From an uncultured Chthonomonadaceae bacterium (lineage in GTDB: Bacteria; Armatimonadota; Chthonomonadetes; Chthonomonadales; Chthonomonadaceae), in the NCBI GenBank assembly GCA_963835065.1, contig CAWIEK010000053.1, positions 224,001 to 288,000 of the forward strand: a stretch of DNA of 64,000 bases. The letters run 5' to 3'. Under the pieces are notes generated by a model that saw nothing but the letters and a program-made list of their open reading frames with translations, did not search any database and was not told the origin of the DNA. Made by a program: the position numbers and the translations under genes. Below, one piece after another: positions 26,337 through 64,000 of the stretch; the first letter of the stretch is position 1; every line of letters starts with the position of its first letter.

Positions 26337-27413
26337 ATGGCACAGGATACAATTACAACGAACCAGTCGCCAGTCGCCAGTCGCCAGTCACCAGCCGCCA
26401 ATCACCAACCACCAACCACTAATCACCCCCTCCTGGAAGCGCGTCAACTGCGCAAGCAGTACGAGCGCCTTACCGCTGTGGATGGCATTGATTTTGAGAT
26501 AAAGCGGGGCGAGATTTTCGGACTGCTTGGGCCGAACGGCGCGGGCAAAACCACGACCATCAGCATGTTGGCGGGGATTTTAACGCCAAGCAGCGGGGAA
26601 ATCTGGCTGAACGGCCTGGCATCCAATGGCGGCAGAGAAGCGCGGCAAATGCTCGGAGTCGTGCCGCAGGAACTGGCGATTTACAGCAAACTAACGGCGC
26701 GAGAGAATTTAGCCTTTTTTGGGGAATTGTACGGCTTGCATGGCGCTACTCTTGCGGAGCGTATTGAGGAAATGCTGACGCTGGTGGGACTTGCCGACCG
26801 CGCGGGGGATCGCGCCGACACGTTTTCGGGCGGCATGAAGCGGCGCTTGAATCTTGCCGTCGGCCTGATGCACCGTCCGCAATTGCTGCTGCTGGACGAG
26901 CCGACGGTGGGCGTTGATCCACAGTCGCGTAACCACATCTTTGAAGGCGTTCGGACGCTGAACCGGGCAGGGCTGACGGTGCTGTATACCAGTCATTATA
27001 TGGAAGAAGTGCAGGCGCTGTGTCACCGCGTGGGCATCATGGACAAAGGGCAACTTATTGCCTGCGATACGGTTGCCAATCTGATCGCGGCGCATGGCAA
27101 GCCCATCATTGAAATTGTCCTGGATATGGCGCAGATTGCTCCCGATTTGCAGCGGCAACTGGAGCAAATGCCGGGTGTGCAGTCCGTACAGGCCACGCCG
27201 ACACCCCGCGCGTCCGACGGCCTTGCGGGAGCAGCGGAAAATTCCGACGCAATCACACTGCTCAACATCTGCACCGAGCAGCCCAATCGCCTGTTGCCGG
27301 AAATCATTCTTGCCTTAAGCGCCGCCCACGCGCCCATTCTCTCGCTCAACGTCAAGCAGCCCACGCTCGAAGACGTGTTCCTCGCCCTCACCGGCAAAAC
27401 GCTGCGGGATTGA
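26337..27413 (+). CDS. ABC exporter ATP-binding subunit (DrrA-like)
   Basis: GPNGAGKTT, FSGGM, LLLDEPT, TSHYMEE. Confidence 0.95.
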   Translation: MAQDTITTNQSPVASRQSPAANHQPPTTNHPLLEARQLRKQYERLTAVDGIDFEIKRGEIFGLLGPNGAGKTTTISMLAGILTPSSGEIWLNGLASNGGREARQMLGVVPQELAIYSKLTARENLAFFGELYGLHGATLAERIEEMLTLVGLADRAGDRADTFSGGMKRRLNLAVGLMHRPQLLLLDEPTVGVDPQSRNHIFEGVRTLNRAGLTVLYTSHYMEEVQALCHRVGIMDKGQLIACDTVANLIAAHGKPIIEIVLDMAQIAPDLQRQLEQMPGVQSVQATPTPRASDGLAGAAENSDAITLLNICTEQPNRLLPEIILALSAAHAPILSLNVKQPTLEDVFLALTGKTLRD

Positions 27414-27523
27414 GGAAGGGAGTAGGGAGTAGGTGGTAGGGAGTAGGACAAGCAAAGTCATTCCTACTCCCTACCACCTACTCTCTACCACCTACTCCCT
27501 ACTCCCTACTTCTGGAGACTGCC

Positions 27524-28795
27524 ATGCCATTCTGGAGCATTGCGCGCAAGGATTTGCGCACCATACTGCGCGACAAGTCCGGGGCCATTATGCTTTTCCT
27601 GTTGCCCCTCGTGTTTCTGTTCGTGTTCGGAGCCGCGTTTGGCGGGCAGTCGCAGGCTGGGAACAAAAGCCCCTTCAAGATTCTGGTGAGCAACGCGGAT
27701 CAGGGTAAGCGGGGCGCGGAAGTAGTACGCGCCATACAGCAGGTGAACCTGACCACGCAGGAAACAGCGGGTGGTGCGCAGGAGGTGGAGGCGCAGGTGA
27801 GCAAGGGCGCGTATGCGATTGGCGTGATTTTGCCTGCCGATTTCAGCGCACAGTTGGAAGCGTATGTCCAAACCGCCTCGGAAGGCAAGTCATCCCCTAC
27901 CCCAACGGAAATGCGCGTCCTGATTGACCCGGCGCAGCCGCAGGTGGCGGGCATGGCAAAGGGCGCGATCTTCGCGTCCGTTCAGCGCGTGATGGGGCCG
28001 CTGTATCGGGAAGCGGCGCTGGCGCGAATTCCCGCCGCGTATCGCGCCGACGCGGAAAAGAACATGACTGCGCAAAGCGGCAACAGCGTCATGCCGTTTG
28101 AAATGAGCGGCGAGGCAAGCGGCAATGCGCAGACAGACGCAGGCAAAGAAGCGAACGGGAACAACAAGAGCGGCAATACAGGGGAAGTAAAGCGCGCGGA
28201 CATAACCGCCGGGGATGTGATTACGCCCGGATTTGCCGTGTACTTCGTGTTTTTCCTGGCGAACAGCGTTGCCGTCAGCCTGCTGCTGGAACGGCAGGAG
28301 GGCACGCTGCGACGCATGTTAAGCGCCCCCATTGCCCGCTCGCAGATTTTACTTGGCAAACTGACGGCGCGAGCGATTTTGGGAATTCTGCAAACGATGA
28401 TGCTGTTCGGCGTGGCGGGCGTGTTCCTGCACACGCATTACGGCAGTTCGCCGTTCGGCATTGCGCTTATCGGACTGGCAACCATTTTCACCGCAACCGG
28501 GTTAGGTCTGCTGATTGCCACCCTCGCCAAAACGCCGGAACAGATTCAGGGCATGACCACCCTGCTGCTGGTGGTGATGGGCGCGATTTCCGGCTGCCTG
28601 ATGCCGCGCATGTTCCTGCCCGACAGCGTACAAAAGTTCAGCCTGATTACGCCCCATGCGTGGGCCTTGACCGCGTATCAGGATTTGATGCTGCGCGGCA
28701 GGCCCTTGACCGCCGTTCTGCCCGAAATTATGGTCGTTGTCGGCTTCGGCGCGGTCTTCTACATTCTGGCTCTGGTTCGCTTCCGCTTTGAATGA
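27524..28795 (+). CDS. ABC-2 type permease
   Basis: ERQEGTLRRMLSAP motif, six TM segments, large extracytoplasmic loop. Confidence 0.92.
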   Translation: MPFWSIARKDLRTILRDKSGAIMLFLLPLVFLFVFGAAFGGQSQAGNKSPFKILVSNADQGKRGAEVVRAIQQVNLTTQETAGGAQEVEAQVSKGAYAIGVILPADFSAQLEAYVQTASEGKSSPTPTEMRVLIDPAQPQVAGMAKGAIFASVQRVMGPLYREAALARIPAAYRADAEKNMTAQSGNSVMPFEMSGEASGNAQTDAGKEANGNNKSGNTGEVKRADITAGDVITPGFAVYFVFFLANSVAVSLLLERQEGTLRRMLSAPIARSQILLGKLTARAILGILQTMMLFGVAGVFLHTHYGSSPFGIALIGLATIFTATGLGLLIATLAKTPEQIQGMTTLLLVVMGAISGCLMPRMFLPDSVQKFSLITPHAWALTAYQDLMLRGRPLTAVLPEIMVVVGFGAVFYILALVRFRFE

Positions 28796-28800
28796 TAAAC

Positions 28801-29775
28801 TCAGTTCTGCTTTGTCAGCCACTCTTCGGCATCTGCCAGCGTGTTGAGGTCGAATAAAGCCAGGCCCAACTCGTCCATCTGTTCTGTTGATAGGCTATGC
28901 AGGCGTGTCTGCAACTCAGGTGATAATGATCCGAATCGGTGCGTCAGCAGCGCCACAAGTAACTCCTCTTTACCTTCCGCGCGGCCTTCCGCGCGGCCTT
29001 CCAGTCGCCAACTGCTTACCATATCTTCTCGCTCCTTTTCTATCTGCGGCAGTTTTGCTTCTGCCTGATTGTATTGACGCTGCTCCACCGTGTTCAGTCT
29101 CAAATACCGGTCAACAAACTGGAAAATCAACTCCGATTTCGCCGGGTTGAGTTTGAGCGTGAGCAGCAGGCGCAGGCACTGCAGCTTCACTTTCGGCCTA
29201 TCCCCCGCCGCAATCTTCATCTTCGCCATCAGCGCCGTCGCTGCCGGGTTGGGCTGCTTGACATACGCGCGCCAACTCAGGCGGTTGAGTTGAATAACGC
29301 GATAGTTGAAGCGATTGACCACGAAGCCGGGAAACGCGACCACATGCTGCTTGGGTTCCGGGCGCAGAGGCGTGTCGTAAGAGAAGATGACCACCGGGTA
29401 AACAGGCAGATTGTATTTCTCGTACAATCGGGCGAAGTACCGGAACATCCGCTTGGGAAAATCCGACTTCGCGCTGGACTGGTTCTCAATGTGAATTAGA
29501 AAGAACGCTTCGAAGGGAGGCTCTTGTGGCTGCGTTGGGTCTGCGGCATCCGCAAGCGCGGCAGGAGTTCGCTTGAAGCGGACTTTCACAACAATGTCTA
29601 CTTCGTGCTTGTCGCCCGAAGCGATGTCGGTAAACACTTCCTTGTCCAGCAGTTCGTAGAAGGAGGTGTCTATGTAGGCGAACACATCCGGCAGGAACGA
29701 CTCGACGAACTCCATGAAGAAGTTCGTCAGCAACTCCTTAAACATTTTATCATGATCTACAGTTTCAAGATTCAT
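28801..29775 (-). CDS. Rpn-family (PD-(D/E)xK) nuclease with DUF4351-like C-terminus
   Basis: HDKMFKELL, VDIVVK, LIHIENQ, RMFRY, EGRAEG repeats, LTHRFG; real start MNLETVD. Confidence 0.88.
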   Translation of the reverse strand: MNLETVDHDKMFKELLTNFFMEFVESFLPDVFAYIDTSFYELLDKEVFTDIASGDKHEVDIVVKVRFKRTPAALADAADPTQPQEPPFEAFFLIHIENQSSAKSDFPKRMFRYFARLYEKYNLPVYPVVIFSYDTPLRPEPKQHVVAFPGFVVNRFNYRVIQLNRLSWRAYVKQPNPAATALMAKMKIAAGDRPKVKLQCLRLLLTLKLNPAKSELIFQFVDRYLRLNTVEQRQYNQAEAKLPQIEKEREDMVSSWRLEGRAEGRAEGKEELLVALLTHRFGSLSPELQTRLHSLSTEQMDELGLALFDLNTLADAEEWLTKQN

Positions 29776-29804
29776 GCCGCTATTGTACCCAATCCCAAGT
29801 TGCC

Positions 29805-30869
29805 TTATGACGCTATACGGTGGGCGGCTGCACCTCGACCATTTTGCCGGTTTCCGCCGACTTCGATGGTAGCGAAGGTCAGGGCAAGGGTGTTCAGGTT
29901 GTCGCGCCCACTGGTTTCGGGTTCCGTGCCGGATTCGATGCAGGCCCGCCAGTGGTACAGATCGTAATGGTGGCCCTGCGCGCCGATGGAGGGCGCCCAC
30001 AGGGGTTCGCCCCAGGGTTCCGGCAGGGGCGTGAAGAAGTGCATGGCGTTGTACTGCGACGTATCCGCGTTTTGCGGAAAATAGCGGATCGGCCCCCACT
30101 CGTCGCGCTGGTTCCACACCAGGCTGCCCCGCGTTCCCGTAATCACCCATCGCCCGTTCCAGCCCGTATCTACGCCGGGTGAGGCGAAACTGCCCGTGTA
30201 GTTGACCTTGACGCCGTTTGCAAAGTCAATCCACGCGAACGCGCTCAGATCGCCCTGCGTGTTGCTGACGCGGGGGTTCCAAGTTTGGGCCATGACCCGC
30301 GTGGCGTTGGAAGCAAGCAGGTAGCGCATCATATCGAAGTGATGCACGGCCATATCCATGAGAAACGGGTGCGGCATTTTCTGCCGCCAGCCGAACAGCA
30401 AGCCGTGTATCTGAAACTCCACATGAACATGGTCAATTTCGCCAATCGCGCCTTCCGCAATCAAGCGGCGCAGAAAGCGGGGCTGATCGTGGTAACGGAA
30501 CTGCTGCGTGACCATCAGCGTTCGCTTCATTTCCTGCGCCGTCCGCACGATCTTAGCCGCCACCGCCATGTTTTCGGCCAGGGGTTTTTCCGCCAGAACG
30601 TTCAGGCCGGCGCGCAGGGCAAGCGTACTGGTAAACTCATGGCAGGGAGCGGGGGTACAGTCAATGAGGCCGTCCGCTTCCACATTGGCAGCGGCGTCCT
30701 CTACATTGGTAAATTGACGCTCTGATGGTACGCCCACAACATCGCCCGCCATTCGCAGCGCGTCGGGGTTCGGGTCCACCAGCGCCACATGATGAAATCC
30801 GTCGCAGTCGCGCACGGCGTAGATCCAGCTTTGTCCAAAGCCGCCTACGCCCGCCTGTATCACGCGCAT
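29805..30869 (-). CDS. Gfo/Idh/MocA oxidoreductase (last codons probably frameshifted)
   Basis: GVGGFG, EKP, DMAVHHFD. Confidence 0.92.
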   Translation of the reverse strand: MRVIQAGVGGFGQSWIYAVRDCDGFHHVALVDPNPDALRMAGDVVGVPSERQFTNVEDAAANVEADGLIDCTPAPCHEFTSTLALRAGLNVLAEKPLAENMAVAAKIVRTAQEMKRTLMVTQQFRYHDQPRFLRRLIAEGAIGEIDHVHVEFQIHGLLFGWRQKMPHPFLMDMAVHHFDMMRYLLASNATRVMAQTWNPRVSNTQGDLSAFAWIDFANGVKVNYTGSFASPGVDTGWNGRWVITGTRGSLVWNQRDEWGPIRYFPQNADTSQYNAMHFFTPLPEPWGEPLWAPSIGAQGHHYDLYHWRACIESGTEPETSGRDNLNTLALTFATIEVGGNRQNGRGAAAHRIAS

Positions 30870-30976
30870 TCTCTTATCGTCTCCCCACAGCGCGCCAAAA
30901 CCTTCGTCCGTAAAACTTTCGTCTTTGAAAGGCGCTGCGTATAACTTTATTGTGCTGAATGTAGATTCCTGCCAAA

Positions 30977-32629: not shown

Positions 32630-33223
32630 CAGGAATTGTCCTTGTAAAATTTTGGATGTAGTATTGTACCCGGCACACTCCGCATTGACAGCACTCTATG
32701 AAATACGGGGTTATCCCGGCAGTCTGTAGAATCGGAGATAATTCAGGGGCGGTGGCTACCGGTAAGTGTTCATAAATCCATAACTTGTCGAACCAGCGGG
32801 AAGTCGAGCAAACAACGGATGAAGGATGAAAAGACAAGGATGAAGGATGAAGGATGAAGGATGAAAGCGCCGGGAAAAGGGCATGTAGAAAAAAGAGTAT
32901 GTAGAGTCATCGTCGAAATCTTGGCAATGCAGCGCTTCCAGCCCGATGTCTCGTTGTGTCAGGTTGTAGGAGAGAGGCGTCGTGACCTCGTAAGCATCAG
33001 GGCGAACGGGAGGGGTGTGGGAACATAGGACTGGCACCTCCCTTCCTGTGTGTCTAACATCTGCATAGTAGACGTTCGTACCACTATTTAGACGACTGTG
33101 TTGAGTTAAGGTTTCACTTTTTTCGCGTTGTTTGGATTTTTTTGCGGAATTATTTTACCGAATTGTTTTTGTTGGCTGGTTGCTGTTGGCGTTGTGTGAA
33201 GAACGGTGCAGGACGCTTGCTTA

Positions 33224-33315
33224 GAGCCTATCCCAGTAGGCCGGGTATTGAAAATACCCGGCAGGAAAGTGCAAGCGTCTTTCAGACGCGAATTCCCGAC
33301 TATCGGGATAGGCTC
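33224..33315. mobile_element. 92-bp MITE with 11-bp TIRs and TTA target duplication
   Basis: TTA-GAGCCTATCCC...GGGATAGGCTC-TTA. Confidence 0.7.
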
Positions 33316-33537
33316 TTAGTATCCGTACATCTATCACGTCCCGGTGGGCGCAGCAAGCAACGCCCCTGCGTTCGTGAAGTTAATAATTTACAGACCCTAA
33401 GTGCGGGGTTATTCGGCCTTACCCATGAAAGCAGACAGCCACAGGCACATTCAGACAACCTATGCTATAATGTCAAACGGACGCAACCGGTATCTGGCGC
33501 GGCAAGATCGCCCGGTTCGGTTGGAGGGGAACCTACC

Positions 33538-33846
33538 ATGATTAGCGAAACGCTTCCACTATCTGTCGAATCGGAGACAGTTCAGGGACAATGGCTGCCG
33601 GTAACGATGATGGAGTTGAGTACAGACGACACGCCCCGTTTAACATTCAGCGTTGTTATGACGTTGCGCAATGGAAATACGCGGCACGGCATCAGCACAG
33701 CGCTTGTGACCGATGCGCGTTTATTGCAGCGTCTGCGTGACGAGGTTCACTCTGGCGATCAAATGGAGGTTTGCATCCAAACGGATTGGGAAGCCGAGGA
33801 TATTCCGACCACTTTGCTGGATTTCGTACTGTGCAATCGCGGATAA
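33538..33846 (+). CDS. Hypothetical protein (102 aa)
   Basis: GGAGG RBS, extended -10 TGCTATAAT at 33463-33471. Confidence 0.6.
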   Translation: MISETLPLSVESETVQGQWLPVTMMELSTDDTPRLTFSVVMTLRNGNTRHGISTALVTDARLLQRLRDEVHSGDQMEVCIQTDWEAEDIPTTLLDFVLCNRG

Positions 33847-33932
33847 TAAAACAGGCTGGAAGCGAAATTTGCTTCCGGCCTGTTTTTGCGTTTCTGGCTT
33901 GTGCTGGTGGGCATCAAACCGCTTTGTCAAGG

Positions 33933-34607: not shown

Positions 34608-34657
34608 GGCATAGGCGCTTTTATGCGCCGGTATGCAAAAATAGTGTGGCAAAGGTT

Positions 34658-36278
34658 TCAAGGCTGGGTTCCTCCGGCGAGAATGCGCGTAGTGTAAGTG
34701 AACGCCCGATTGGACGGATTGCTGAACTGCAGAGTGATCGGTGACGCTGGCTCCCGGCGCGAGGCGATTGCCTGTCGTCGGATATACGTTCATATAGGGG
34801 CTGTTGAACGGCGCAAGCGATTGGGTAAGGCCGTTCGCGGAAGCCAGCGTGACGCCAGGCGGCAGGCCGTCAAGAGCGAGAAACACACTGCCCGGAATGG
34901 ACGCGGACGACGTGTTTTTCAGCGTGATTTGCTGCGCGTACAGGTTCGTGCCGCGGTTGAAACGCAGGCCGCCCCGCGTAACGCGCATCTGTGAGGTGAC
35001 ATCATGCAGGCCACGATTGTTCAGCAGGACGCTGGCATCGCCGCTGGTAAAGTTTGCCGTGACGAGGTCGGGAAAGCCATCGCCGTTGAAATCCCCAACG
35101 GCCAGCCAGTTCGGGCCAATCCCGTTGATGGCATAGGTTTGCAAATCCCCGAATGTGCCATCCCCGTTGCCGGGCAGAACGCTCACCGAGTTGCTGGTAT
35201 AGTTGGCGGTGACGAGGTCCAGTTTGCCGTCGCCGTTGATATCCACGATGACGAGGCCGTCCGGTCCCGATCCACTGCCGGTGGAAATAATCTGCTGGCT
35301 TTGAAACGTTCCGTCGCCGTTTCCGAAATAAACGCTCACATTGTCGTCGCTGTAGCCGGGAACCACGACATCCAGATTGCCGTCGTGGTTCAGGTCGGCG
35401 ACGGCAACGGCATACGGGTTCTGGCCGACCGGCAGATCGCTGGAAGCGCCGAACGTGCCGTCGCCGTTGTTGAGCAGCGTGGAAAAGGTTCCGCCGTAGG
35501 AGTTGGCGGTGACAATATCGAGTTTGCCGTCGTGGTTGAGATCGGCGAGGACAATAGCCTGCGGGCCGCTCCCGGCATTGTAAAGCTGAACCGTTTGAAA
35601 GGTTCCATCCCCGTTGCCAAACAGGACGCCAACGGTATCATTTTCGTAGTTGGCGGTGACGATATCCGGCTTGCCGTCGCCGTTCACGTCCCCAATAGCA
35701 ACGCCTTCCGGCACGGCATCCGTTGCGAACGTCAGGGGCGACTGAAACGTTCCATCCCCATTGCCAAGCAGGACGCTGACATTGCCGTTTGTGGTGCTGG
35801 CGGTCACAATATCCGGCTTGCCATCGCCGTTCACATCCGCGACAGCCATGCTTTCCGGCCTGCTTCCGACGGCAAATTCCAGCGGGTCCTGAAAGGTTCC
35901 ATCGCCGTTGCCAAGCAGGACGCTGACGCTGCTGACTCGCCGGTTCACAACGGCAATGTCGGGAATGCCATCGTGGTTGAAATCGGCAACCACAGACGCA
36001 TACGCCCCGAAATCCGTTGTATACTCATCACTCGGCCCGAAAAGCGGACGCTGCTGCGCCTGCGCCTGCCGAGACAGGCCGGACAGGGCAAACAAAGTAA
36101 ACAGCATCGCAAGCGCGGCTAAACGGTTGATAGTTGATAGTTGATAGTTGATAGGGAGGCAGGAACTACGAACTTTCAGCGCCCCTCTGGTTAGACGCAT
36201 ACCTTGCGTACATGGAATAGCGCGGCGAATACCGCGTCGGATTCGCGCTGCGTCAGTCAAAACAAAAACGGCGGACAT
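34658..36278 (-). CDS. FG-GAP/VCBS repeat secreted protein, +1 frameshift near 34740
   Basis: Seven DxNxDGxxD repeats; the alternate frame restores TLQFSNPSNR..RILAGGTQP*, matching the paralogue's end. Confidence 0.85.
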
Positions 36279-36306
36279 AAGAACTCCTTTGTGTGATGCC
36301 GGATGG

Positions 36307-36348
36307 TCGGCGGGTGGGGCAAACGGTCAAGCCGCCCTACCCGCCGAC
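36307..36348. repeat. Intergenic hairpin between FG-GAP paralogues
   Basis: GTCGGCGGGTGGGGC / GCCCTACCCGCCGAC. Confidence 0.65.
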
Positions 36349-36357
36349 AGGTAAACG

Positions 36358-38437: not shown

Positions 38438-41012
38438 ATGCGCCGCCTCTTTCTTTTATTCTTCCTGTTTGTTTCCGTTGCCGCTTGCGCGCAGGAAAAG
38501 CCCCCGCCTCCCATCGGGCCACATATCGAGCAGATTGGGCCGCACAATACGATTACCGTTCAGGCGGTGGGCGAACCGGGGCATTATATCGGATTTGATG
38601 TGCTTGCGGACGGCAAATTGGCCGCGCCCGTTCGCTTCACATCCCGTGAGTTGATCTTCAGCGCGGATGCTGCTAGCCGCCAACAAGGGCGCTGCGTCCA
38701 CGCTTGTCTTTGACAATCTGCAAGCCGCGCCCGATTGCGGGCTTGCTTTACAGCACAGCCGCGTTGTCGTGACGCTTGTACAGCAGCAATTCCCCACCGT
38801 CGCCTTCGACCTCAATCTCACTTCGTTTTCGTCTCGCGAGTGGCAGCAGGCGATTGGCTTGCAGCCGTTCCACTTTCTCACGTTGGGACTGCCGGAAGCG
38901 ACGGTATGGCATCAGCGGGGCTGGCTGTTTGCCACGCCACGCGCCGATTTGTTTCCCCTCCTGCTCGATGTTCACGCCGGAATGCCCGAACTTTCCGCTT
39001 CCTACAACCACGAATGGAGCGCGACTCCGCCCCTGTCCGCCCATGCTTTGCCCGTTGTCGGGTTGTGGTCTCCCGCCCGAAAATTGTACATCGGCTGGGA
39101 TTTTCAGGCTTCGCGCATAGGTGACAATTCCGAGCGCGACATTGCCACCGGCTTCTGCAATCGCCTGATTGTTCCGGTTGAACCGCGCATCCGCCAGCCT
39201 ATCGAAGAAACACAGCCGCCCGCTTCGCCCCTCCCGGACGCGGACGCGCCCCGCAGCCGCAATGGAAAGCCGCCGTCCCATCGTGACCCGCGCACTCGCC
39301 GCCCGCTTTCCTATGACCAGCAGGCAAGCCGGGAACTGGATCACAGCGGCGTGGGTAAATTCGTCGCGCTCGTGTACCCGCAGGGCGGCGCAGACGCGCG
39401 GCAGCCTGCCTATCCCAAAGCCGGAACACGATTGTCCTCCCGCGCCACGCTTACGTTCAACACGGATTTAAGCGATACGGATGATCCCAACCGCTTTTTG
39501 TGGCAGAACTGGTGGAACACGCCTTCCATTTACAGCCATCTGGCAAACGTGCCGCTTGTCAACGATCTGAGTTGGCTGCCCACATCAACACTCCTGCAAA
39601 CGCTCACGCCCGCTCCTCAAAACAGCCTGCTTACCGTTGCCGATGACCAGTACCACATCCCCGGTTCCCTGCTGCTGGCCGGCCAAAACACGCTCAACGA
39701 AAGCCAAGTGGAAACCGCCTTTCATACCGACAGCCAAACCCAATTGACACAACTGCAAGCCGACGCGCAAACCCTGCTCCACTACGCCAAACATTTCACC
39801 CTTGACAAAGAACCCTGCGTCTATTGGGAACAGCCGCTTGCCGGCGAATGGACAACGCAATGGGGCGGCGAACCCGCCACCACCCTCCATTCTCACAGCG
39901 GGTGGGCGGCGGCGCGGCTGTTGCTGGACTTGTATAAAGAGGAGAAAAGAAGAAGAGAAGAAGAGAAGAAGAGAAGAAAAGCAGAGCAAAACGAACATAC
40001 CTCTGCGAGTTTGCTAACGCAGGAAGGGGAGAAGCATCCCAACTCTTCTCTTCTTCCTACAATAGACGGTGTTTTCAACTGGACAAAGCGCGTCGTCTGG
40101 ACGCGGGGGCGGTTGGGCGATTCGCCTGCGTCGGCAAGCGTGGAGGATGGCGCGTCGGCGATTGCGTTTTTGCTGGATTATTATTTCACCTTCAAAGACG
40201 ATCTGACGGAGGACGCCCACCATACGCGGGCTTTGCAGGCGTTGGAACTGGCGCGTACTTTTGCGTACCGTTATCTGATTATGTGGACGGGTAATGGGGA
40301 TAGTGGCGGCGCTGAGAACAGCGCGTTTTTGTGGGAGCGGCGTTCAGGACAGGAACCGGCAGGCGGGGCGCAAGACGGGGAGAACCTGGACGCGCTGGCG
40401 CAGGTGGCGGTGCATACCGGGGATCCTATTTTGATGTGGGCGCTTCGCGGCAGCCTGTCGCGTGGCACAGCCCTGTTTCAGAACATGCCTCAACAAGCAG
40501 TAGTAAAGGAAGCCGCCGATCAGGAAAGAACACCGGGCACTACATTAACATCTACCGCAGCAAGCATGTCCCTGCACATGATGGAGCCGGTTGGCGACAC
40601 GCAGATGCGGGTGTTGTGCGGGGAACGGGCCGCGCTTGCCTTTGACCGCAACGCACAAACCCTGAACGTCCGCGATTATCGCTGCACAAGTTCGGGGGAC
40701 TTCGCGTTTACGCTGCGCGCAGGGGATACGTCACTGGTTTCCCCGGCGAATACGCGCCGGTTCAGCGTGACAATTACGTTCCCTTATGTGGATTTAAGCC
40801 GAAAAACGGTTGCCGTCCGGCATGGCAATGTCACGCAGAAAACGCTCGATCCGGGCGCGGAACTGATGCGGGAACCGGACGCGTTCTGGTCGTTGATTGT
40901 CCGCAACTTGCGCGATGGCGATACCGTTATTGTCGGCAAGCCGGATTTGAGCGCGGCAAACCGCCTGCCCGTTGCGCCTCCTCGTGCCACAATCAACGGT
41001 TTACTTCCCTGA
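38438..41012 (+). CDS. Large secreted hypothetical protein, frameshift near 38670-38690
   Basis: Signal-peptide ORF overlaps the 781-aa ORF in another frame. Confidence 0.65.
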
Positions 41013-42394: not shown

Positions 42395-42469
42395 CTTTGG
42401 GGCACAAGATATAAGGGAAAAGGAAAAAGGAGAAAGAATGAAATTCATCCTTCATCCTTCATCCTTTCC

Positions 42470-43837: not shown

Positions 43838-44135
43838 ACTCCTTAATGACTGGCAAACGTGAGGAAGGCATCAGGCATTAGATATTAGGCATTAGATAAG
43901 GGCTGTTGGGACAATAACTTGTATCTAGTGCCTAATGCCTGATGCCTTCCCCGCAAAATAGTACCGCAAACATTGAATGAGAACCGAGTCAGTTTCGCAT
44001 CGGTTGGGGTAGTATAGAAAAAGCAGTTGCAAACACCCTTTGGGAATGGAGCGCAGTCCCTTATACGGAGGCTGGCCCGCTTTCCATCACGCCATTTACC
44101 GGAAAATTTCTAAATTTTTTGACGGGAGAACCCCT

Positions 44136-51831: not shown

Positions 51832-52752
51832 TTATGCCCAACTCAGGTCACGGCTAATCAGCACCTCGGTCATGGCGGCATGATGGGTGTTCTTCATAGG
51901 AATCGCCAGAGTTTCAAAACCATGCTTTGCCGCCAGTTCGCACACGCCCGGCGCGTTGTCGTAGGTCATCAGGAACGCGCCCCGTAGCGTTGCGGCAACG
52001 CGAAACAGTTCCTCGTGATCCAGTTCGCTGTGCGCGTACAAACGGGAACCCGCTTTTTTGCCATCCGCCGTGTAAGGCGGGTCAATGAAGAACACAGCAT
52101 CAGGACATAAGGCGTTCTCCTTGAGAACTTGCAGGCCGTCACCCTGCACAAAGCAAATGCGCTCGGCAACCAGAGCGATGTTGTCAATGCGCGTTTTCAG
52201 CGTCTGCGGATACCAACGCGAGGCCAATCCCTTGCCGTTCTCGCCACGCTTGAGCCTTCCGCTTCCCGGCGCTAAGATGCCGCCGTGATTGATACGGTTG
52301 CGCAACAGGGTTTGAAAGGCTCTTTCGCGTACATCCGAACAGGGACGGTCAAGTTCCGCCTGTACGTTCTCTGCGGTCAAGTCAAACCCCACAATTTTCT
52401 TCGCCAGCCATGCCGCATTGCCGCCAAGAATGGCTTGCCACACGGCGGCAACATCCGCGTCAAGTTCTACCATCGTTACCATGTTTGCCAGTTGCTCAAA
52501 CGCGACGGTCAGGCTGATAATGCCGCCCCCGGCAAACGGCTCGATGAAATGCTGCGGCTTGTTATTGAGACTGCCAAGCCATTGCCGCAGGCGCGGCACG
52601 AACCACGTTTTGCCGCCGGGATAGCGAAACGGACTGCGCTGCGGAACCGAAGCGACATTGACAATGGCTTCGCTTTTCGCCTCCTCGAACAGTTCGTATT
52701 GGTAAGCAGGCTCACGAACCTGTGTCAAGGGTATTGAGCGCGTTGCCGCCAT
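51832..52752 (-). CDS. DNA adenine methyltransferase (Dam/D12 class)
   Basis: FRYPGGK, EPFAGG, DPPY. Confidence 0.93.
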   Translation of the reverse strand: MAATRSIPLTQVREPAYQYELFEEAKSEAIVNVASVPQRSPFRYPGGKTWFVPRLRQWLGSLNNKPQHFIEPFAGGGIISLTVAFEQLANMVTMVELDADVAAVWQAILGGNAAWLAKKIVGFDLTAENVQAELDRPCSDVRERAFQTLLRNRINHGGILAPGSGRLKRGENGKGLASRWYPQTLKTRIDNIALVAERICFVQGDGLQVLKENALCPDAVFFIDPPYTADGKKAGSRLYAHSELDHEELFRVAATLRGAFLMTYDNAPGVCELAAKHGFETLAIPMKNTHHAAMTEVLISRDLSWA

Positions 52753-53587
52753 TGTTCAGTCTCCTGTTGAGTTGCGTCTGCAATTGACCCACAAACACGC
52801 CTTCATCCCCCGCCTCCGAGCGGGTAATTTTCAACAGCGCGGCTTCAAATTGCGTGTAGATGATTTTGTGACGAACAAGGTTGTAGCGGTTGTTTGTGGC
52901 GTCGTGCTGCATATCATAGATCAGCCAGGCCATATCCGCATCGGCTTTGTCCACTTCTTCCAATTTGGGCAGAGTGTTGTAAAAGCCGCGATGCAGAGCA
53001 ACCGCCATTTTGCGCTGCCAGGTGTTGAGAATGCCGCCTTTGAAAATCAATTGCGGAGCCAACCGCTTGCGGGAGGACGAAAGATAATCTGGGCGCGGAT
53101 AGTTACGCTGCCGCCGCCAATCCATATCAAACCGTGTCGGCGGGTCTTCCATGTAGTTTTCAAACGGCGTTCGCACATTGCCCGAAATGTAAACCGCCTG
53201 CACTTCCAGCGCACCGTAATCAAGGACGCGGCCCACTTTGTCATAGGAAATCAGCACCACGTCAATGTTACCGGCAGACTTGCCCGCGCGGTCGTTAAGC
53301 TGTACTTCCGTCAGCGCTGTCCAGGCCGCTTCGGGCGGAAAGAAAAACTCGGCGGCATCGGTGGCAATACGCCAATCCTGCCGGAAGCGCACCGGGCAGG
53401 TAATCGCCACTTCGCCGCCTGTGCCAAAAACGCTGCACACGCCAAGCGGATTTTCCACGCTGCTCTTCGTGCAGTTGGGTGAGGTGTTGTTGAAAGGGCA
53501 CAGCCGATTGTTGCGAACGCGGTCAGCGTCTGAGGACAGATTATCTGCCGGAAAGCCAAACACTTCGGCTAAAGGATGGTTGGGCAT
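52712..53587 (-). CDS. NotI-family restriction endonuclease
   Basis: CPF..C.K..GVC..CPVRF Cys cluster, GNID, EVQAVYISG, KRLAPQL..KG. Confidence 0.85.
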   Translation of the reverse strand: MPNHPLAEVFGFPADNLSSDADRVRNNRLCPFNNTSPNCTKSSVENPLGVCSVFGTGGEVAITCPVRFRQDWRIATDAAEFFFPPEAAWTALTEVQLNDRAGKSAGNIDVVLISYDKVGRVLDYGALEVQAVYISGNVRTPFENYMEDPPTRFDMDWRRQRNYPRPDYLSSSRKRLAPQLIFKGGILNTWQRKMAVALHRGFYNTLPKLEEVDKADADMAWLIYDMQHDATNNRYNLVRHKIIYTQFEAALLKITRSEAGDEGVFVGQLQTQLNRRLNNGGNALNTLDTGS

Positions 53588-53787
53588 GATGCCTGTCTAT
53601 TCGCGAAGATAGAAGCACATTCCTCTTCATTTCTTCATAGTTTGTTCGCTTGCAGTGAGTTGATTTTATCTACCTTTGGGAACTGTCAATACACTTTTCC
53701 ACGTCCTAACCCTGAACTGTCTGTCACTTCAGTTTTTCGGATTGTCAACATTGTTTTTATTTGGCAGGATTGCGGGAGGAGCCTTCC

Positions 53788-54471: not shown

Positions 54472-54626
54472 AAGATTGACTGCTGTTACCGGCTACAATT
54501 GGGCCGGTAATGGCACGGCCCATGTCGCCATGATTGGGTACAGTACCGGCAAGGCTTCCAGCAGTTCACGTACAGACTGATACCCGGCTAACGACTGTGC
54601 CGATGTGAAATAGTCTCCAGGCAATT

Positions 54627-55127: not shown

Positions 55128-55175
55128 GGTATGTTTCTCCTTCCCTACCCACCTTGCTGCAAACAGAATATGGCA

Positions 55176-55907: not shown

Positions 55908-56019
55908 CTGTTTTCTACTTTCTCCTACACATGCTTTTCAGGTAGGGAAATGCGCGTTAATCTCATGCCGAAAAAGGCAAGTAGTAGATTTACGCCTCCT
56001 AAGCACCCAATACTCAAAT

Positions 56020-57255: not shown

Positions 57256-57274
57256 GCGCCAGTCTCCTTGTATA

Positions 57275-57498
57275 AACCGCGAAACACGCCAAACAAACGA
57301 AAAAAGAACAAAAACAAAAATACAAACCACGGAGAACACGGAGAACACGGAGGAACGCGGATAGGAATATCAGGAGGCTGTTTTGATGAACAGAGCTTTT
57401 TCCATCTTTGTTCGTAATCCTGTTTAATCCTTCTAATCCTCTTAATCCTGTCTATTTTCTTTCGTATTCTTTTCGTTTGGTTCGCGTGTTTCGCGGTT
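57275..57498. repeat. 29-bp inverted repeat enclosing two other 9-mer arrays
   Basis: 57275-57303 versus 57470-57498 (27/29); internal (CACGGAGAA)3 and (TAATCCTnn)4. Confidence 0.85.
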
Positions 57499-57503
57499 CT
57501 TAC

Positions 57504-59018
57504 TTATGCAAGTATCGGATGGATCACTTCGCCGCTTACATCGGTCAGGCGCATGTTGCGGCCACTGTACTGGTACGTGAGGCGGGTATGGTCCAGGCCA
57601 AGCAGATGCAGAATGGTGGCGTTGAGGTCATATACTGTCTGCACGTTTTCAGACGCGACGTAGCCGATTTCATCCGACGCGCCGTAAATGGTTCCGCCCT
57701 TGACGCCGCCGCCCGCCAGCCAGCACGAGAACGCTTTCGGGTTGTGGTCGCGGCCCACGCTGCCTTCGGTAAACGGCATACGTCCAAACTCGGTATGGAA
57801 CACGAGCAGGGTGTCCTCGAACAAGCCGCGCTGTTTCAGATCGCGGATCAGGCCGGCAATCGGGAGGTCAATTTCGCCCGCCCGCATCGTGTGGTTGGGA
57901 ACCATCGCGTTGTGCGCGTCCCAACTCTGGTCGAATACGCCGCCGCCGGAGTAAATCTGCACAAAGCGAACGCCGCGCTCCACCAGCCGACGCGCCAGCA
58001 AACACTGCCGCCCGACGATTTCGGTTTGCGGCTTGTCCAGACCGTACAGCGTTTTCGTGGCCTCGGACTCGCGGCTCAAATCAACCGCTTCCGTCGCTTC
58101 CGACTGCATCCGGTACGCCAGTTCATACGCCCGTATCCGCGCCGCCAACTCCTGCTCGCCCGGACGCCCGCGCAGAAACTCCTCATTGAGTTTGCCGATG
58201 AAGTCCAGATGTTCGCGCTGCTTTTCGGGCGTGACGCCGGCGGGCGGCTTCAGGTTGAGGACCGGCAAGCCCTGACTGCGAAACTGTACGCCCTGATAGT
58301 TGGATGGCAGAAAGCCCGCGCTCCAGTTGCCCGCGCCGCCGCCGACAAGGGCGCGCGGATCGGTCATCACGACAAACGCGGGCAGGTTCTGGTTTTCGGT
58401 TCCCAATCCATAGGTGATCCAGTTGCCCAACCCCGGCCTGCCGCTCAAAATGCTGCCGGTCAGCATGTGGTACACGGCGGGAACGTGGTTGTTGCTGTCG
58501 GACTTCATGGAGCGGATGAGGGCAATATCATCGGCGCAGCTTCCGATATGCGGCAATAAGTCGGACACGGGCATCCCGCACTGACCGTATGGCTTGAACT
58601 GCCAGGGACTTTTCATCAATTTGCCCGGCGCGCTCCGCCCGCCCGTGTCAAAGCCGGGCCGCCCCGCAACCGAAGCGCCATCTTGTTTGATAAGCTCGCT
58701 TTTCGGGTCAAACGTGTCAACGTGGCTGATGCCGCCGAACATAAACAGCGAAATCACGCGCTTCACTTTGGGCGCGAAGTGCGGCGGTTTTGGGAAGAGC
58801 GGGTCTTGGGTGTTGGGATTGCCGATTGCCGATTGCCGATTGTGGATTGTGGATTGTTCCCTGACCCCTGACCCATGACCCCTGGCCCCTTCTCCTAAAG
58901 CGCCTTCTTCACCAAGCAGAAAGGCCAATGCCAGCCCGCCAATGCCGCCGCCTGCCCGCGCCAGGAAGTCTCGCCGCGCAATGTTCTCCGGCCCGCTATG
59001 ATCGTCGTGTGGTTCCAT
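57504..59018 (-). CDS. DUF1501 family protein (Tat signal)
   Basis: RRDFL, GGISHVDTFDPK, LLARRLVERGVRFV, WDAH, EFGRMP, GRDH. Confidence 0.93.
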   Translation of the reverse strand: MEPHDDHSGPENIARRDFLARAGGGIGGLALAFLLGEEGALGEGARGHGSGVREQSTIHNRQSAIGNPNTQDPLFPKPPHFAPKVKRVISLFMFGGISHVDTFDPKSELIKQDGASVAGRPGFDTGGRSAPGKLMKSPWQFKPYGQCGMPVSDLLPHIGSCADDIALIRSMKSDSNNHVPAVYHMLTGSILSGRPGLGNWITYGLGTENQNLPAFVVMTDPRALVGGGAGNWSAGFLPSNYQGVQFRSQGLPVLNLKPPAGVTPEKQREHLDFIGKLNEEFLRGRPGEQELAARIRAYELAYRMQSEATEAVDLSRESEATKTLYGLDKPQTEIVGRQCLLARRLVERGVRFVQIYSGGGVFDQSWDAHNAMVPNHTMRAGEIDLPIAGLIRDLKQRGLFEDTLLVFHTEFGRMPFTEGSVGRDHNPKAFSCWLAGGGVKGGTIYGASDEIGYVASENVQTVYDLNATILHLLGLDHTRLTYQYSGRNMRLTDVSGEVIHPILA

Positions 59019-59031
59019 ATCAGTTTTCCTA

Positions 59032-59355
59032 CTACCTTCGCATGTCTTGACCCGTTAATGATGTTTCTGCCTGATTCCATACCGACCAAACTTCGGCGGC
59101 AAGTGGCAAAACCGATTCTACAAAGCGCAGTCCTTCTTCAGACAACAAGCGATAACCCTCCGCAGCCAATTCGTCCTGACAGAGACGGGCATCTTCGACA
59201 ACAAGGTCCGCCAGGTAGCGGTTCACTAATTTGTCTTCTTCCGTTGTGCGCTGCCACAAAACATTTATGACAGCACTTTCAAAATACAGGTTCAGCTTTA
59301 TCAAAGACAGGGACATACCTTCTACTTTAGTATGTGCTACGAACCGGTATAGCAC
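59032..59355 (-). CDS. Small ORF, possible antitoxin remnant
   Basis: LAAEGY..E..RF.E..LP pattern; start uncertain. Confidence 0.3.
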   Translation of the reverse strand: MLYRFVAHTKVEGMSLSLIKLNLYFESAVINVLWQRTTEEDKLVNRYLADLVVEDARLCQDELAAEGYRLLSEEGLRFVESVLPLAAEVWSVWNQAETSLTGQDMRR

Positions 59356-59379
59356 AATCTTCTTTACTTGATTGGAAGA

Positions 59380-60406
59380 AATTACTTCCTCTTACAACGC
59401 CGAAGCAGTTCCAGCCAAGCCAGAACATCTTTTGCGCCGTTGCGAACAGCCTCATTCGGTTCCCGCAAAACTTTATGGCACAATTGTTCTATGGAAGGTA
59501 CATCAAAGGTCCGAATACAGAGAAACCATTTCGGGCGCGTTGTGCAGCAGTTCCAGCACTTCTATTTTTTCTGGAACTGTGAGCTGTCTTGTTGCCAAAA
59601 CTTTGCGTGGCAATTCTCTCCAAGCATCCGTATGTTCAGAGGTTTCTACATCCTTATCCCTCCAGCCAAGGCGACATAGACAATTATGCGCGGTATCATG
59701 GATGTAGTAGTCTTTGCTTTGCAATGCCATTGCCAGCAGCTTGACTGACAAGAACTTGCTGTCTGCATTAAGGGGAAATGCCTGCAACGCGCGAAGTATG
59801 CTCAGGCGAACAGTTTGGGATGCTTGCGGGTATAAAGATGTAAGCAGTTCTATGGCCGATTTGGTTGCAATTCGCGTAAGTGCGTACACCGCAGCAAACT
59901 GGCTATCTTCACCACTGTTGTACAAAATCTCCCGTAAAATTGGAATTGCTTCATCGCCTGCAAGGTACATTGTGCGGATACTTCGGAACAACGGCTTGGC
60001 TATGGTCCTGTAATGCCAACTGCAAGAGCGGCAGAATCGATAAACTTCCAATTCGCCCTAATGATCGAACCGCCTCAACGCGCACACCTTCTACCTCATC
60101 CTGCAATGCAATGGAGAGGCCGTTAATAGCCGCCGGATTTCCAATATGCCCCAACGCTATTACGGCAGCAAGCCGAGTGACAATTTGATAATCTTGAAGT
60201 TTACCAATCAGCAAAGGTATGGCTTCTAAGCTGCCCTGATGCCCCAATGCTTTGATCGCGCTCTGACGCACCCTCTCGTCCCAATGGTTCAGCAAGCCAA
60301 TCAACGGTTCAATGGCGCGAGTGTCGAAAATATCCTGATAAACCTCTAATGCTGCAAGGCGCGTTTCCATTTCAGGGCTATTCAAGGCTTCCAGTGGGTC
60401 ATCCAT
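59380..60406 (-). pseudogene. HEAT-repeat protein split by at least 2 frameshifts
   Basis: VRQSAIKALG, TRLAAVIALG, VRVEAVRSLG; continues in other frames to EAVRNGAKDVL..LELLR. Confidence 0.7.
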
Positions 60407-60443
60407 GATACATCCGCCGTTCACGCGAACAGACAGTCACACA

Positions 60444-60874
60444 TTATCCGTAAGTTGCTTGCACGGCCTGCGGCTGTTCATTCCATTGGAAGACATAACC
60501 ACGCCGAAATTCTAAGCCATGAATTCTTCGTTCGTGAATTCATGGTAGCGCGGGTTTATTTGCTGCTGTGCCCGCATATATACGAGAAATTCCTTAACGA
60601 AGGGTTCATCAGGGCGTAAAACGACAACACGCGATATAGTAAGCAACTCTTCTTTTGTGAGAGACTTCTTCAACTTGTCGAACACCAAGTCCAATGTTGG
60701 TTTTGTGTTTTCCCCTACCCAGGGTGCCGAGACGATAATATCCCATGGTCCTACGGAGTTTTCTCTCTCCAGAAGAGCAAATAAGGTAAACTCTCCCCGC
60801 ATACGGGCGAGTTCCTGTTGAATCTCCGGCAAAACTTGAAGCAAGCGAGCTTTTTTTGATTGATAATCCATCAT
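60444..60874 (-). CDS. HEPN-partner hypothetical protein, frameshift near 60520
   Basis: LFALLERE..WDIIVSAPW; the alternate frame continues GLEFRRGYVF to TAA at 60444. Confidence 0.6.
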
Positions 60875-60875
60875 T

Positions 60876-61274
60876 TCAGATAACCTTTACCAACACGCGA
60901 ACTGCGGAAATCATATTGAGCGCGTCTGTTTGTGTAACAGAACCCACAGGGCGATAACACACTTCCGGCGTCCAGTTGTTCGTACCATTTGACCATTCCG
61001 AACCGTAATCAGCCCGAATACGCGCTTCGATACCGGAAAGTGTCAACAAAACATCAAGATCATGCGTCTTGAAACTTTGATAATGCGCGAACTCTCGGTT
61101 GGATTCGGGAAAACCTGCCCACTTCAGCGTTCGGCAGATACGCGCCTTCAAAGCAACTTCGACAGCATACCCACACAAGTAGACAGCGCCATCGTAGCGT
61201 TTGTTGCGGTAAAGCGCTTGCGCTTCATTCAAACGAACACGCGCAATCAGTCTCAAATTAGCAATGGAAATCAT
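60876..61274 (-). CDS. HEPN domain protein
   Basis: YDGAVYLCGYAVEVALKA, KTHDL. Confidence 0.85.
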   Translation of the reverse strand: MISIANLRLIARVRLNEAQALYRNKRYDGAVYLCGYAVEVALKARICRTLKWAGFPESNREFAHYQSFKTHDLDVLLTLSGIEARIRADYGSEWSNGTNNWTPEVCYRPVGSVTQTDALNMISAVRVLVKVI

Positions 61275-61303
61275 AGCCCTGTAGCTTCTGCCTCCCTTCT
61301 ATG

Positions 61304-63552
61304 CTATGGCACGTATACGAACTCGTTCAGGTTGAACACGGCCTGGCAGAAGTCGGAGAGGGCGGACGCGCCGCGCTTTTGCATGAATGTCAGGCTCAGG
61401 TTTAGTTCCTGCGCCGACGGGCTGCGGCCAAATGCCAGTTGGTAGGCGCGTTCTACCTGTTGGCGCGGATTGTTGGGACACTCTTTTTGCAGACGTTGCG
61501 CGAACAAGCCGGCCTGCCGCAGAATGAGCGGGTCGTTGAGCAGAGTCAGAGCTTGCAGGGGCGTGGTCGTGACATTGCGCTGCGCCACCGTATACGTAAT
61601 TTCGGGGCAGTCGAACACTTCCAGTTCCGGCAGCAGCGTGGAGCGTTTCACCTTCACGTACACGCTGCGCCGCCATGTGGACGCATCATCTTCGCCGTCG
61701 TGCCAGTTGGGACCTTGAAACGTGTCGGCGCGGAGGGATGGATCAATCGGCGGATACACGGGCGGGCCACCCATTTGCAGGTTCAGGGTTCCCGCCAGCG
61801 ACAAAATGGTGTCTCGTATCGGTTCGCCTTCCAAACGGCGCACGGGCATACGCCAGTAATACTTGTCCTGCGGGTCGGCCTTCATCCCCGCGTCGCGCAT
61901 GTCCGAAGCCTGCTGATACGTGGACGAGAGGAGCATCAGGCGGTGCAGGGGCTTGAGGCGCCATTGCATGGCAAATGATGAGTGATGAGTGATGAGTGAT
62001 GAATTGGATTTTGTATTCCATTCATCATTCATCATTCCTCGTTCATCATTTGCAACGAAGTTGCTTGCCAGCCAATCCAGCAGTTCCGGGTGGGAGGGCC
62101 GTTCGCCGTTGAGGCCGAAGTTGCTGGGCGTGTTGACCAGGCCCCTGCCGAAGTGCTGCCGCCACACGCGGTTGACCCACACGCGGGCGGTGAGCGGGTT
62201 TTGCGGACTGGTCAGCCAATCGGCAAGCGCGGTTCGGCGTCCCGTCGTGGCGGCGGTTGCGGGAGCGGTTCCAACATCCGTTGCGCCATTGGGCAGGAAA
62301 CAGATAAAGCCCGGCTTTACCTCGTCGCCCGGATGGTAGGCGTCGCCGCGCAACAGCAAATGGCAGGCCGGAAACTCGCGGCCTCTGTCGGTGACGATTT
62401 GGGCGTGGGGAACTTCCAAACGCTGCGCTTCCAGCGCTTTCACCTGCTGCTGAAGCGCCGTAAATTGCTTACGAGCGGGTTCGGGCAGAGCGGCGGAGTA
62501 TTTGCGCGTCATCGGGTTTCGGCTGTCCCGCTTTCTTTGCGGCTTCCTCGCCCTGCTTATGCAGAGCGTCTAGTTGCGGGCGCAAGGCGGCCAGTTGTTT
62601 ATCCAAGCGGCGCGTTGTGTTCGGCGACGGTACGGCGTTCTTCCACACTCGCGCACTCCACTTCGCGCCGCTCGGTTGGGGCGAAGATGGCGGCCAGTCG
62701 GTAGTAATCCGTCTGCTTGACGGGATCATACTTGTGGTCGTGACACCGGGCGCAGCCAATCGTCAGGCCAAGCATGACCGAACCTGTAGTGGCAACCAGA
62801 TCATCCAGTTCGTTGGCGCGGGTTCGGGCGTTGTTTTCTACAATGTCCTGCGGGCCACAGGCGAGATACCCGGTTGCAATCAGCGCGTTAGGATCGTTGG
62901 GCTTGAGTTCATCGCCGGCAATCTGTTCGCGTATAAATTCGTTGTACGGCTTGTCCTGATTGAAAGCGTCAATCACATAATCCCGGTATCGCCAGGCAAG
63001 GACACGGTCTTTATCCCCCTCGAAGCCGCCACTGTCGGCGTAACGCGCCAAATCCAGCCAGTGCCGCCCCCACCGCTCGCCATAGCGCGGACTTGCCAGC
63101 AGGCCATCCACAACTTTTTCCCAGGCACGGGGAGACTTGTCGTTGACAAACGCTTCCACATCGGCAGGCGCAGGCGGCAGGCCGATCAAATCGAAATATG
63201 CGCGGCGAATCAACGCGCGGCGGGACGCGGGCGGAGACGGCTGCAAACCGTTTTCGCGCATTTTAGCAAGCACGAAAGCGTCAATCGGATTATGTATCCA
63301 CGCAGATTGTATCTTGGGAACAGGCGGCAGCACAGGCGCTTTGAAAGCCCACCAAACCTGCGGCTGCGCCTTATTGACGATTTTCGATTGCCGATTGACG
63401 ATTGACGATTTGGTTCCTGCTGTTCCCTGTTCCCTGTTCCCTGTTCTCTGTTCTTCTGTTTGACACGCGGCGGCAAGGGACAGCGCGGCGAGGCCGAGCG
63501 TCAAACCGAGTTGTATATTCCGTATGGCGCGATGTGGTCGCCCGTTGCTCAT
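61304..63552 (-). CDS. DUF1549/DUF1553 (PSCyt2/PSD1) protein with two frameshifts (about 62610 and 62500)
   Basis: [53 protein letters not shown]. Confidence 0.88.
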
Positions 63553-64000
63553 GCCGTTTCTCCCGCCCGTTAAGCAGTTGAGAGTTGAGAGTTCGTAGTT
63601 GATAGACAGGCAGGAACTACGAACCTTCAGCGTTCCTCCGCTTCGTTTCTGCGCTTCCCTGCGCAATGCCCGCCTGTAAACAATCTTATTGCCCTATTCT
63701 ACCATTTTCAACCGAGCATGGCAGACAAATTGCGCGGAGTTGCAGAGGCGTTGCGCCTTGCCATTGCGTCACAAGCGTTGTTGATTTTCGTTTTGACTAG
63801 CATACAAGGGAAGATTCGTTTTGTTAGACACGCTAAGTTCTTTGGAGTTGCAGGGAAAGGGGGCGGCAAGGCTGATTGCCCACGCCTCGACACTTTCAAG
63901 CAGGCCGGCTGTACGTGTAATTGCGTAAACACGCCGTAATGTCCGAATACCGAATACCTGAATACCGAACACCGAAGTTTTCAAGGCGAAATACTTAATG

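Follow-up and report, generated by a model that had tools for sequence, protein, structure and literature searches.

To our knowledge, an excess of 7-base repeats has been noted in scattered bacteria for decades with no mechanism, and we likewise know of no function for PF05635, a large family of four-helix-bundle proteins. We report on arrays of 7-base units in a window of 64,000 nucleotides from an uncultured Chthonomonadaceae bacterium, i.e. positions 224001-288000 of contig C53 of the genome studied here (G000; 8.0 Mb, 57% G+C, 92% complete; C numbers denote its contigs), and on their counterparts throughout that genome. We hold, at a probability of roughly 0.6, that the arrays are the polarised arms of non-autonomous hairpin elements of approximately 120 bases, which resemble REP doublets forming hairpins (REPINs; REP, repetitive extragenic palindrome) and Rickettsia palindromic elements (RPEs), are likely derived from small cassettes carrying a PF05635 gene and likely spread like them. 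The element family probably descended from PF05635 cassettes and from cassettes carrying GxxExxY genes. Such an origin, if true, would provide a testable source for the unexplained 7-base repeats of bacteria, the heptamer excess and PF05635 being tied together by a fixed polarity, a period set by the cargo family and content that is swapped at stable sites.

Cyanobacterial short tandemly repeated repetitive (STRR) sequences reportedly have 7-nt units and are mostly intergenic. The initial annotation of the window had likened the arrays to them, and the likeness extends to unit length, copy number and unit family; G000, however, is not the cyanobacterial host that the strict STRR definition calls for, and no photosynthetic reaction-centre gene was detected (PF00124 was unmatched in the 92%-complete assembly and matched in a Synechococcus control). 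Heptamer repeats elsewhere have, as in G000, 7-nt units in 2-6 copies and are mostly intergenic, near starts or stops (PMC4679880, PMC4692102). The TAACTGA repeats of Beggiatoaceae are presented there without an evident mechanism (PMC4679880), and GGGAATC of Xanthomonas and Nostoc forms inverted pairs, 70-75 of them in Xanthomonas (PMC4692102). Unlike G000, where 108 unit families obey one polarity rule, are swapped at orthologous sites and match the arms of PF05635 genes, these accounts each deal with a single unit in a given genome and do not name a gene as its source. The S23p intervening sequence (IVS) of Coxiella has GACAGAT heptamers and a 28-bp stem with a PF05635 gene in its loop (PMC4990558). 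As in the IVSs of Coxiella and Leptospira, the G000 cassettes place a PF05635 open reading frame (ORF) in a heptamer-built stem, and a similar unit, AAGACAG, has 75 arrays in G000; unlike the IVSs, the three G000 cassettes are located between protein genes in mRNA operons and not in 23S rRNA, and gene-less copies outnumber the genes several hundred to one.

REPINs and their REP-associated tyrosine transposases (RAYTs) combine inverted doublets, conserved arms and a variable spacer of preferred length with a gene of low copy number that has its own repeat on both sides (PMC3337134). G000 shares the inverted doublet, the several families per genome, the conserved arms with variable spacer of preferred length and the low-copy gene with its own flanking repeat; it differs in having tandem arrays for arms in place of palindromic REPs, in a flanked gene other than a Y1 transposase and in the other repeats that its own Y1 genes bear. 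RPEs, approximately 150 nt long with 44 copies in one genome (PMC10969869), are likewise hairpin repeats kept in frame inside unrelated housekeeping genes; G000 differs in the number of genes concerned (246-290), in its mosaic tandem arms and in the swapping of the peptide between congeners. Weak family matches to Avd, the accessory protein of diversity-generating retroelements (DGRs), were obtained (NF033474, E 5e-8; PF22296, E 6e-5; both below cut-offs), and homology of Avd to PDB 2GSC has been noted (PMC10053308). No reverse transcriptase lies beside the three PF05635 genes, which are on C8, C25 and C33, the reverse transcriptase genes being on C49 and C50 (template and variable repeats were not searched for). 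By strict definition the G000 elements are neither miniature inverted-repeat transposable elements (in the terms of PMC10969869) nor REPINs, IVSs or DGRs; prokaryote satellites are covered in PMC6749651. We found no publication linking PF05635 or GxxExxY genes with dispersed pairs of heptamers, and no published account of the armed cassette or of in-frame arrays, in a coverage beyond which lie most subscription papers and, for the former, the supplementary tables of PMC4679880 and PMC4692102.

For G000, 6,601 genes (76% coding) were called with a dicodon-based method. Exact runs of at least 14 matches numbered 2, 6, 1,330, 239 and 46 genome-wide for periods 5, 6, 7, 8 and 9, respectively, compared to 0-1 per period in the codon-shuffled control (none for period 7), which bears out the excess of period 7 implied by the initial annotation. 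With mismatches allowed, as in all further counts of 7-mer arrays, there were 2,217 7-mer, 581 8-mer and 177 9-mer arrays; the 8-mers and 9-mers have the same architecture as the 7-mers, and with periods ranging from 7 to 10 the notion of a period fixed at 7 has to be given up. The 7-mer arrays (median length 30 nt) comprise 108 unit families, among them the large families AGTTGAT (265 arrays) and AGGCATT (220 arrays). These units had been described as unrelated; they are instead joined by one-change steps in a mutational network (57 edges vs. 29±5 for letter-shuffled units), a single component of which holds 35 of 51 common units. Grouping of arrays gave 1,889 sites, 1,403 of them intergenic. 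Arrays are clustered, with 793 of 2,146 gaps between them shorter than 100 nt vs. ~60 under random placement, and neighbours 10-100 nt apart were inverted in 380 of 573 cases where ~24 were expected with shuffled unit labels, i.e. an approximately 16-fold enrichment that confirms the inverted pairing initially proposed. The density of 7-mer arrays is 28 per 100 kb in G000 and 13 in its congener G002, of which 1.06 Mb (approximately one seventh of its genome) was compared.

An arm consists of approximately four units (rounded to whole units, 655 of 776 arms have 4 or 5), and the matched pairs form terminal inverted repeats with the purine/G-rich strand on the left and its complement on the right in all 902 ends of the 451 pairs. 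Sites with two mismatched arms, typed by this rule (n = 146; a further 117 could not be fully typed), were left-right in 104 cases, same-type in 40 and right-left in 2, and in 111 of 115 sites with three or more typed arms all left arms came first. Three of the pairs listed for the window (42414, 58817 and 63379) combine a left arm of one family with a right arm of another. Spacer length peaks at 54-60 nt (146 of 388 pairs; 88 of 325 without the AGTAGTC family), and arms are 96-98% identical to their unit, compared to a median of 48% pairwise for AGTAGTC spacers. Outer arm ends are concentrated around stop codons (from -30 to +10 nt, 518 of 920) and 10-40 nt before starts, just ahead of the ribosome-binding site (RBS; 270 of 974), and matched pairs occupy stop-to-RBS gaps. 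Of 339 pairs, 304 have co-directional genes on their two sides and 7 have divergent ones.

Arms of the same polarity also enclose genes. All three PF05635 genes of G000 (TIGR02436 above cut-off) are enclosed in this manner, by AGTAGTC units on C8, AACAGGG units on C25 and an 8-mer on C33, and its three GxxExxY genes all lie inside arms of 8-9-mers. A survey of GTDB genomes provided 80 PF05635 loci from several phyla, of which three were dropped because of short flanks and 77 scored: inverted sharing between the flanks exceeded direct sharing in 69 loci, and arrays with periods of 7-10 were present upstream in 58 (one being an N run) and downstream in 57, compared to 10 of 292 control windows. 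Within the phylum of G000, comparing the 30 best loci per family (each set with one G000 locus, and one N run included), period 7 gave the top score in 31 of the 48 PF05635 flanks that scored and in none of the 39 GxxExxY ones, whose arms were 8-10-mers. Arm period hence follows the cargo protein and not the host polymerase; since PF05635 and GxxExxY often occur in one host, the footprint of its replicative polymerase alone does not explain the period. An enzymatic 7-nt ruler had been postulated for the window. A ruler linked to a protein gains indirect support in that arm period varies with the enclosed protein family inside one phylum; no unit-writing enzyme was identified, the period is not confined to 7 and mutation connects the units with one another.

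The PF05635 genes have dN/dS values of ~0.04-0.10 in those pairs with finite dS (three of four), and the C8 protein matches PDB 2GSC (E 1.5e-18; 5 chains), described as a homopentamer (PMC4990558). The five subunits may correspond to the 4-5 units of an arm, and the 125-residue C8 protein and its own (AGTAGTC) arms are candidate reagents. Among 84 left-right spans with lengths of 200-1,500 nt, inspection by eye revealed no recurrent small cargo besides PF05635 and GxxExxY (the family scan was not applied to them). The genes sharing arm-type ends belong to PF05635 and PF13366, neither a known transposase family (only Y1 and reverse transcriptase families were searched for). Separately, 25 nt are tandemly duplicated close to the start of the GxxExxY gene on C19 (8300-8350), a duplication that is not in the G002 orthologue and probably shifts the frame, and three PF05635 loci among relatives (L145, L031 and L034) have reversed or one-sided arm polarity, possibly as neighbouring-cassette or inverted forms.

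Comparison with relatives shows that a whole cassette was gained at a site previously empty: 13 of 13 relatives lack the C8 cassette at the corresponding junction. The C25 site holds a gene-less pair with a different unit in G002 and nothing in a second congener, G001; in both of them the C33 site has gene-less arms of 9-mer type. Gene-less elements were also found as near-identical copies: the spacers at C3:220000 and C3:223917, 4 kb apart, are 96% similar in unrelated flanks, and flanks were unrelated for 67 of 83 best spacer matches. Same-family pairs were within 2 kb of each other in 20 of 75 cases vs. 8±2. A profile of AGTAGTC spacers alone yielded 16 new matches at E≤0.1, compared to one match (E 0.64) in the reversed genome. 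Each of the 16 adjoins clean arms, and in 11 cases one arm or more is built from a different unit. Moreover, 212 orthologous junctions of G000 and G002 were armed in both (53), in G000 only (29), in G002 only (12) or in neither (118), i.e. arms were present in G002 at 53 of 82 G000-armed junctions vs. 12 of 130 unarmed ones. At 42 of the 53 shared sites the unit differs by at least 2 bases or in length, and spacers were alignable at 3 of 21 shared sites vs. 25 of 41 ordinary gaps. The joint change of eight units on two arms is not expected from drift, and the data point to pre-formed arms that are copied and replaced, rather than to unrelated 7-mers freshly synthesised.

Coding sequences are affected as well, with 334 sites of at least 90 nt inside 290 called genes; 246 of these genes have a 7-mer or at least two arrays, and some single 9-mer coding sites are ordinary coding repeats. 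Among multi-arm sites, matched pairs are rare in coding sequence (26 of 202) compared to intergenic DNA (445 of 619), and of the 437 arrays of four families that contain stops on either strand, 2 are in coding sites. Naming of eight hand-picked host genes placed inserts in TopA (~25 extra residues relative to PDB 6OZW), MetH, Ddl, TrpE and SucB, which pass NCBIfam cut-offs. The window itself has DUF1501, DUF1549 and DUF1553 genes; the DUF1553 insert (61976, 27 residues) is absent from 4 of 4 aligned orthologues of other genera and has 34 residues in G002, with an extra nested arm. Among 34 coding sites aligned with G002, many have, by eye, a different repeat-derived peptide at the same place. 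Frame is also kept in metagenome contigs of relatives (at 58817, 69 nt against 45; at 61982, 60 nt against 75); at the former, DUF1501, site the 45-nt version replaces the 69 nt in a ~95%-identical relative, and no clean excision joint was seen in these contigs. Frame retention together with stop avoidance suggests that the coding inserts are translated. There was no sign of out-of-frame inserts that need splicing: of 83 sites compared with G002, 23 were open in both and 2 only in G002, one of which is intergenic and the other was not examined. G000 is an extreme case of repeat DNA writing peptides of 15-60 residues into ~4% of proteins, including topoisomerase I and methionine synthase.

If the arms belong to hairpin elements as proposed above, new elements would insert beside or inside older ones, the older arms would then be deleted or overwritten, and a site would persist while its content is swapped. 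In coding DNA selection would retain combinations of arms that are free of stops, keep the frame and are mostly non-complementary. More speculatively, the cargo protein, a predicted pentamer, might bind one unit per subunit and in this way set both the period and the arm length of 4-5 copies.

Several observations weigh against derivation from the cassettes. PF05635 is not known to have a catalytic role (PMC4990558), and no transposase is linked to the arms, given that the best two Y1 genes bear their own non-heptamer repeats and the two reverse transcriptases are not arm-enclosed. Target-site duplications were not detected, 388 pairs fitting the shuffled distribution (only 6-mers deviate, 7 vs. 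2.5). The 92%-complete assembly contains no PF05635 gene cognate to the AGTTGAT or the AGGCATT family, the two PF05635 genes of G002 do not bear its commonest units, and the interior of the C8 cassette is not among the 16 spacer-profile matches listed. No site with the same unit was seen both with and without a gene, among 26 relative loci (few with orthologous flanks) and the three G000 cassette sites. Since dS between G000 and G002 is ~0.67 (one gene), the divergence of their spacers is partly expected from drift, which could account for part of the lost similarity. Finally, the presence of PF05635 does not predict load (p = 0.096): 15 positive genomes had 12 arrays in a total of 600 kb and 15 negative genomes 5 in 556 kb, with at most 40 kb sampled per genome and kin not independent, and the loads of all 30 are far below those of G000 and G002. 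Array expansion is lineage-specific, and PF05635 is not sufficient for it.

A bolder proposal, which we regard as doubtful, is that there exists an undescribed class of mobile elements whose trans-acting components are PF05635 proteins and GxxExxY proteins of nuclease fold. A pentamer ring would read one 7-base unit per subunit, fixing both the period and the arm of 4-5 copies, and GxxExxY would use 8-10-base units. In the lineage of G000, gene-less copies would have run away, overwriting each other at ~1,900 sites and rewriting loops of hundreds of proteins, and the excess of heptamers across bacteria would stem from elements of this class.

The strongest rival, in our view an unlikely one, is in-place slippage of a polymerase with a 7-nt footprint, the second arm arising by fold-back template switching and the host keeping the hairpins as terminators or mRNA-stabilising stems with armed genes as passengers. 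Slippage over 7 nt has already been proposed (Mrazek 2007, according to the summary in PMC4679880). As template switching predicts, variants of a unit recur in mirrored form on the partner arm (94 vs. 48±5 by chance), the units form a mutational network, and one G002 site is a single-unit hairpin where G000 has full arms; the prevalence of pairs between co-directional genes is consistent with host use, as is their strong folding (z -8 to -10 for the RNA of three window pairs; -71.7 kcal/mol, z -9.7 at 27417..27510). Slippage leaves unexplained the fixed left/right polarity, the homologous spacers at unrelated loci, the change of period with cargo protein inside one phylum and the far lower load in the 30 sampled relatives. 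There was no sign of selection for RNA wobble, with 67 G-U vs. 109 A-C mismatches on the sense strand, a count in which mutation bias is uncontrolled.

Another reading, to which we assign little probability, is that the arms are bound by an RNA-binding regulator of the host, perhaps the PF05635 protein, which controls translation or mRNA processing, and that they spread by gene conversion and selection. The clustering of outer ends at stops and ahead of starts and the conservation of PF05635 genes agree with this, and MacGregor proposed such a role for TAACTGA (PMC4679880). Opposed to it are the change of unit identity at most shared congener sites, the hundreds of arms inside coding loops, and G001, a congener without PF05635 that had 0 arrays in the 40 kb sampled. 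That the repeats are assembly or sequencing artefacts of G000 is refuted by the same architecture in independent assemblies (G002, named GTDB genomes and independent metagenome contigs with frame-keeping variants), even though at least one probable 1-nt assembly error lies near window position 62597.

In the window, all nine sites of the initial annotation were found at their coordinates, four of them (26362, 58817, 61976 and 63379) inside ORFs, and Tandem Repeats Finder added those at 7421, 9761/9805, 36126, 39937 (8-mer), 57290-57454 (8/9-mers) and 63576 (Table 1). The G002 junction that corresponds to 27417..27510 has (AGGAGAT) arms instead.

Table 1. Arms and pairs in the 64,000-nt window (window coordinates).
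Feature	Position	Strand	Context
Right-type arm (TCAACTA)x3	7421..7440	+	At stop of minus-strand gene 7435-8049
Inverted pair (TTGATAG)/(AACTATC)	9761..9831	+	Between type II secretion-like genes; absent from the initial annotation
Degenerate left arm, TGGTGAT-like	26232..26261	+	First 3 bases are the TAG stop of a TPR gene; intact in congener G002
Right arm (CCAGTCG/CCAACCA)	26362..26427	+	In frame, N-terminus of ABC ATPase 26337-27413; shorter in G002, also in frame
Matched pair (AGGGAGT)/(ACTCCCT)	27417..27510	+	Fills stop-to-RBS gap from ABC ATPase to permease; variant unit mirrored
Solo left arm (GGATGAA)x7	32817..32865	+	Abuts separate dispersed repeat of ~300 nt
Left-type arm (GTTGATA)x4	36126..36154	+	Inner junction GCAGGAACTACGAAC common to arm at 63576
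8-mer left arm AAGAGAAG	39937..39985	+	Within ORF 38667-41012
Mismatched pair, degenerate (AAGGAAA) left arm and (TTCATCC) right arm	42413..42466	+	Between convergent genes
Matched pair (AGGCATT)/(AATGCCT)	43863..43950	+	RNA fold -56.5 kcal/mol, z -9.7
Nested 8/9-mer arms, GxxExxY type, CACGGAGAA ... TAATCCTGT	57275..57460	+	Gene-less
Mismatched arms (GATTGCC and CCCTGAC)	58790..58890	-	In frame in DUF1501 gene 57504-59018
Pair (TGATGAG)/(CATTCAT)	61976..62050	-	27-residue in-frame insert in DUF1553 domain
Mismatched arms (GATTGAC and CTGTTCC)	63373..63460	-	In frame near N-terminus of DUF1549 gene 62599-63666
Left arm (AGTTGAG/AGTTGAT)	63576..63605	+	
Right-type arm (CCGAATA)x4-5	63943..63976	+	

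The dispersed repeat of ~300 nt, together with a second short repeat, occupies 32866-33200 and 33240-33330, with 355 BLAST matches in G000; G002 has the repeat too. The DUF1549 gene of G002 encodes ~100 more residues after the array, and the deletion in G000 ends at the array (63373-63460), which suggests that the deletion was associated with the array. The DUF1549 and DUF1553 parts form a single open frame in G002 (923 aa) and are split in G000 by an apparent 1-nt frameshift at 62590-62610, probably an assembly error given that the contig of one relative lacks a base at 62597.

RAYT-like Y1 transposase genes are present at C42:76421-76894 and C51:103020-103472, each with its own inverted non-heptamer repeats, and represent a separate REP-type system. 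The reverse transcriptase gene at C49:681456-683452 is followed by another ORF, the start of which presumably resembles Cas1. Reverse transcriptases and Y1 transposases were both considered as movers and set aside, as neither is enclosed by arms.

A NotI-like restriction endonuclease gene adjoins that of a D12-class adenine methyltransferase at 51832-53587 of the window, and a cluster resembling type II secretion/type IV pilus systems (secretin, PilM/N, pilins and T2SSE/F) spans 4362-17027, with arms in two of its junctions.

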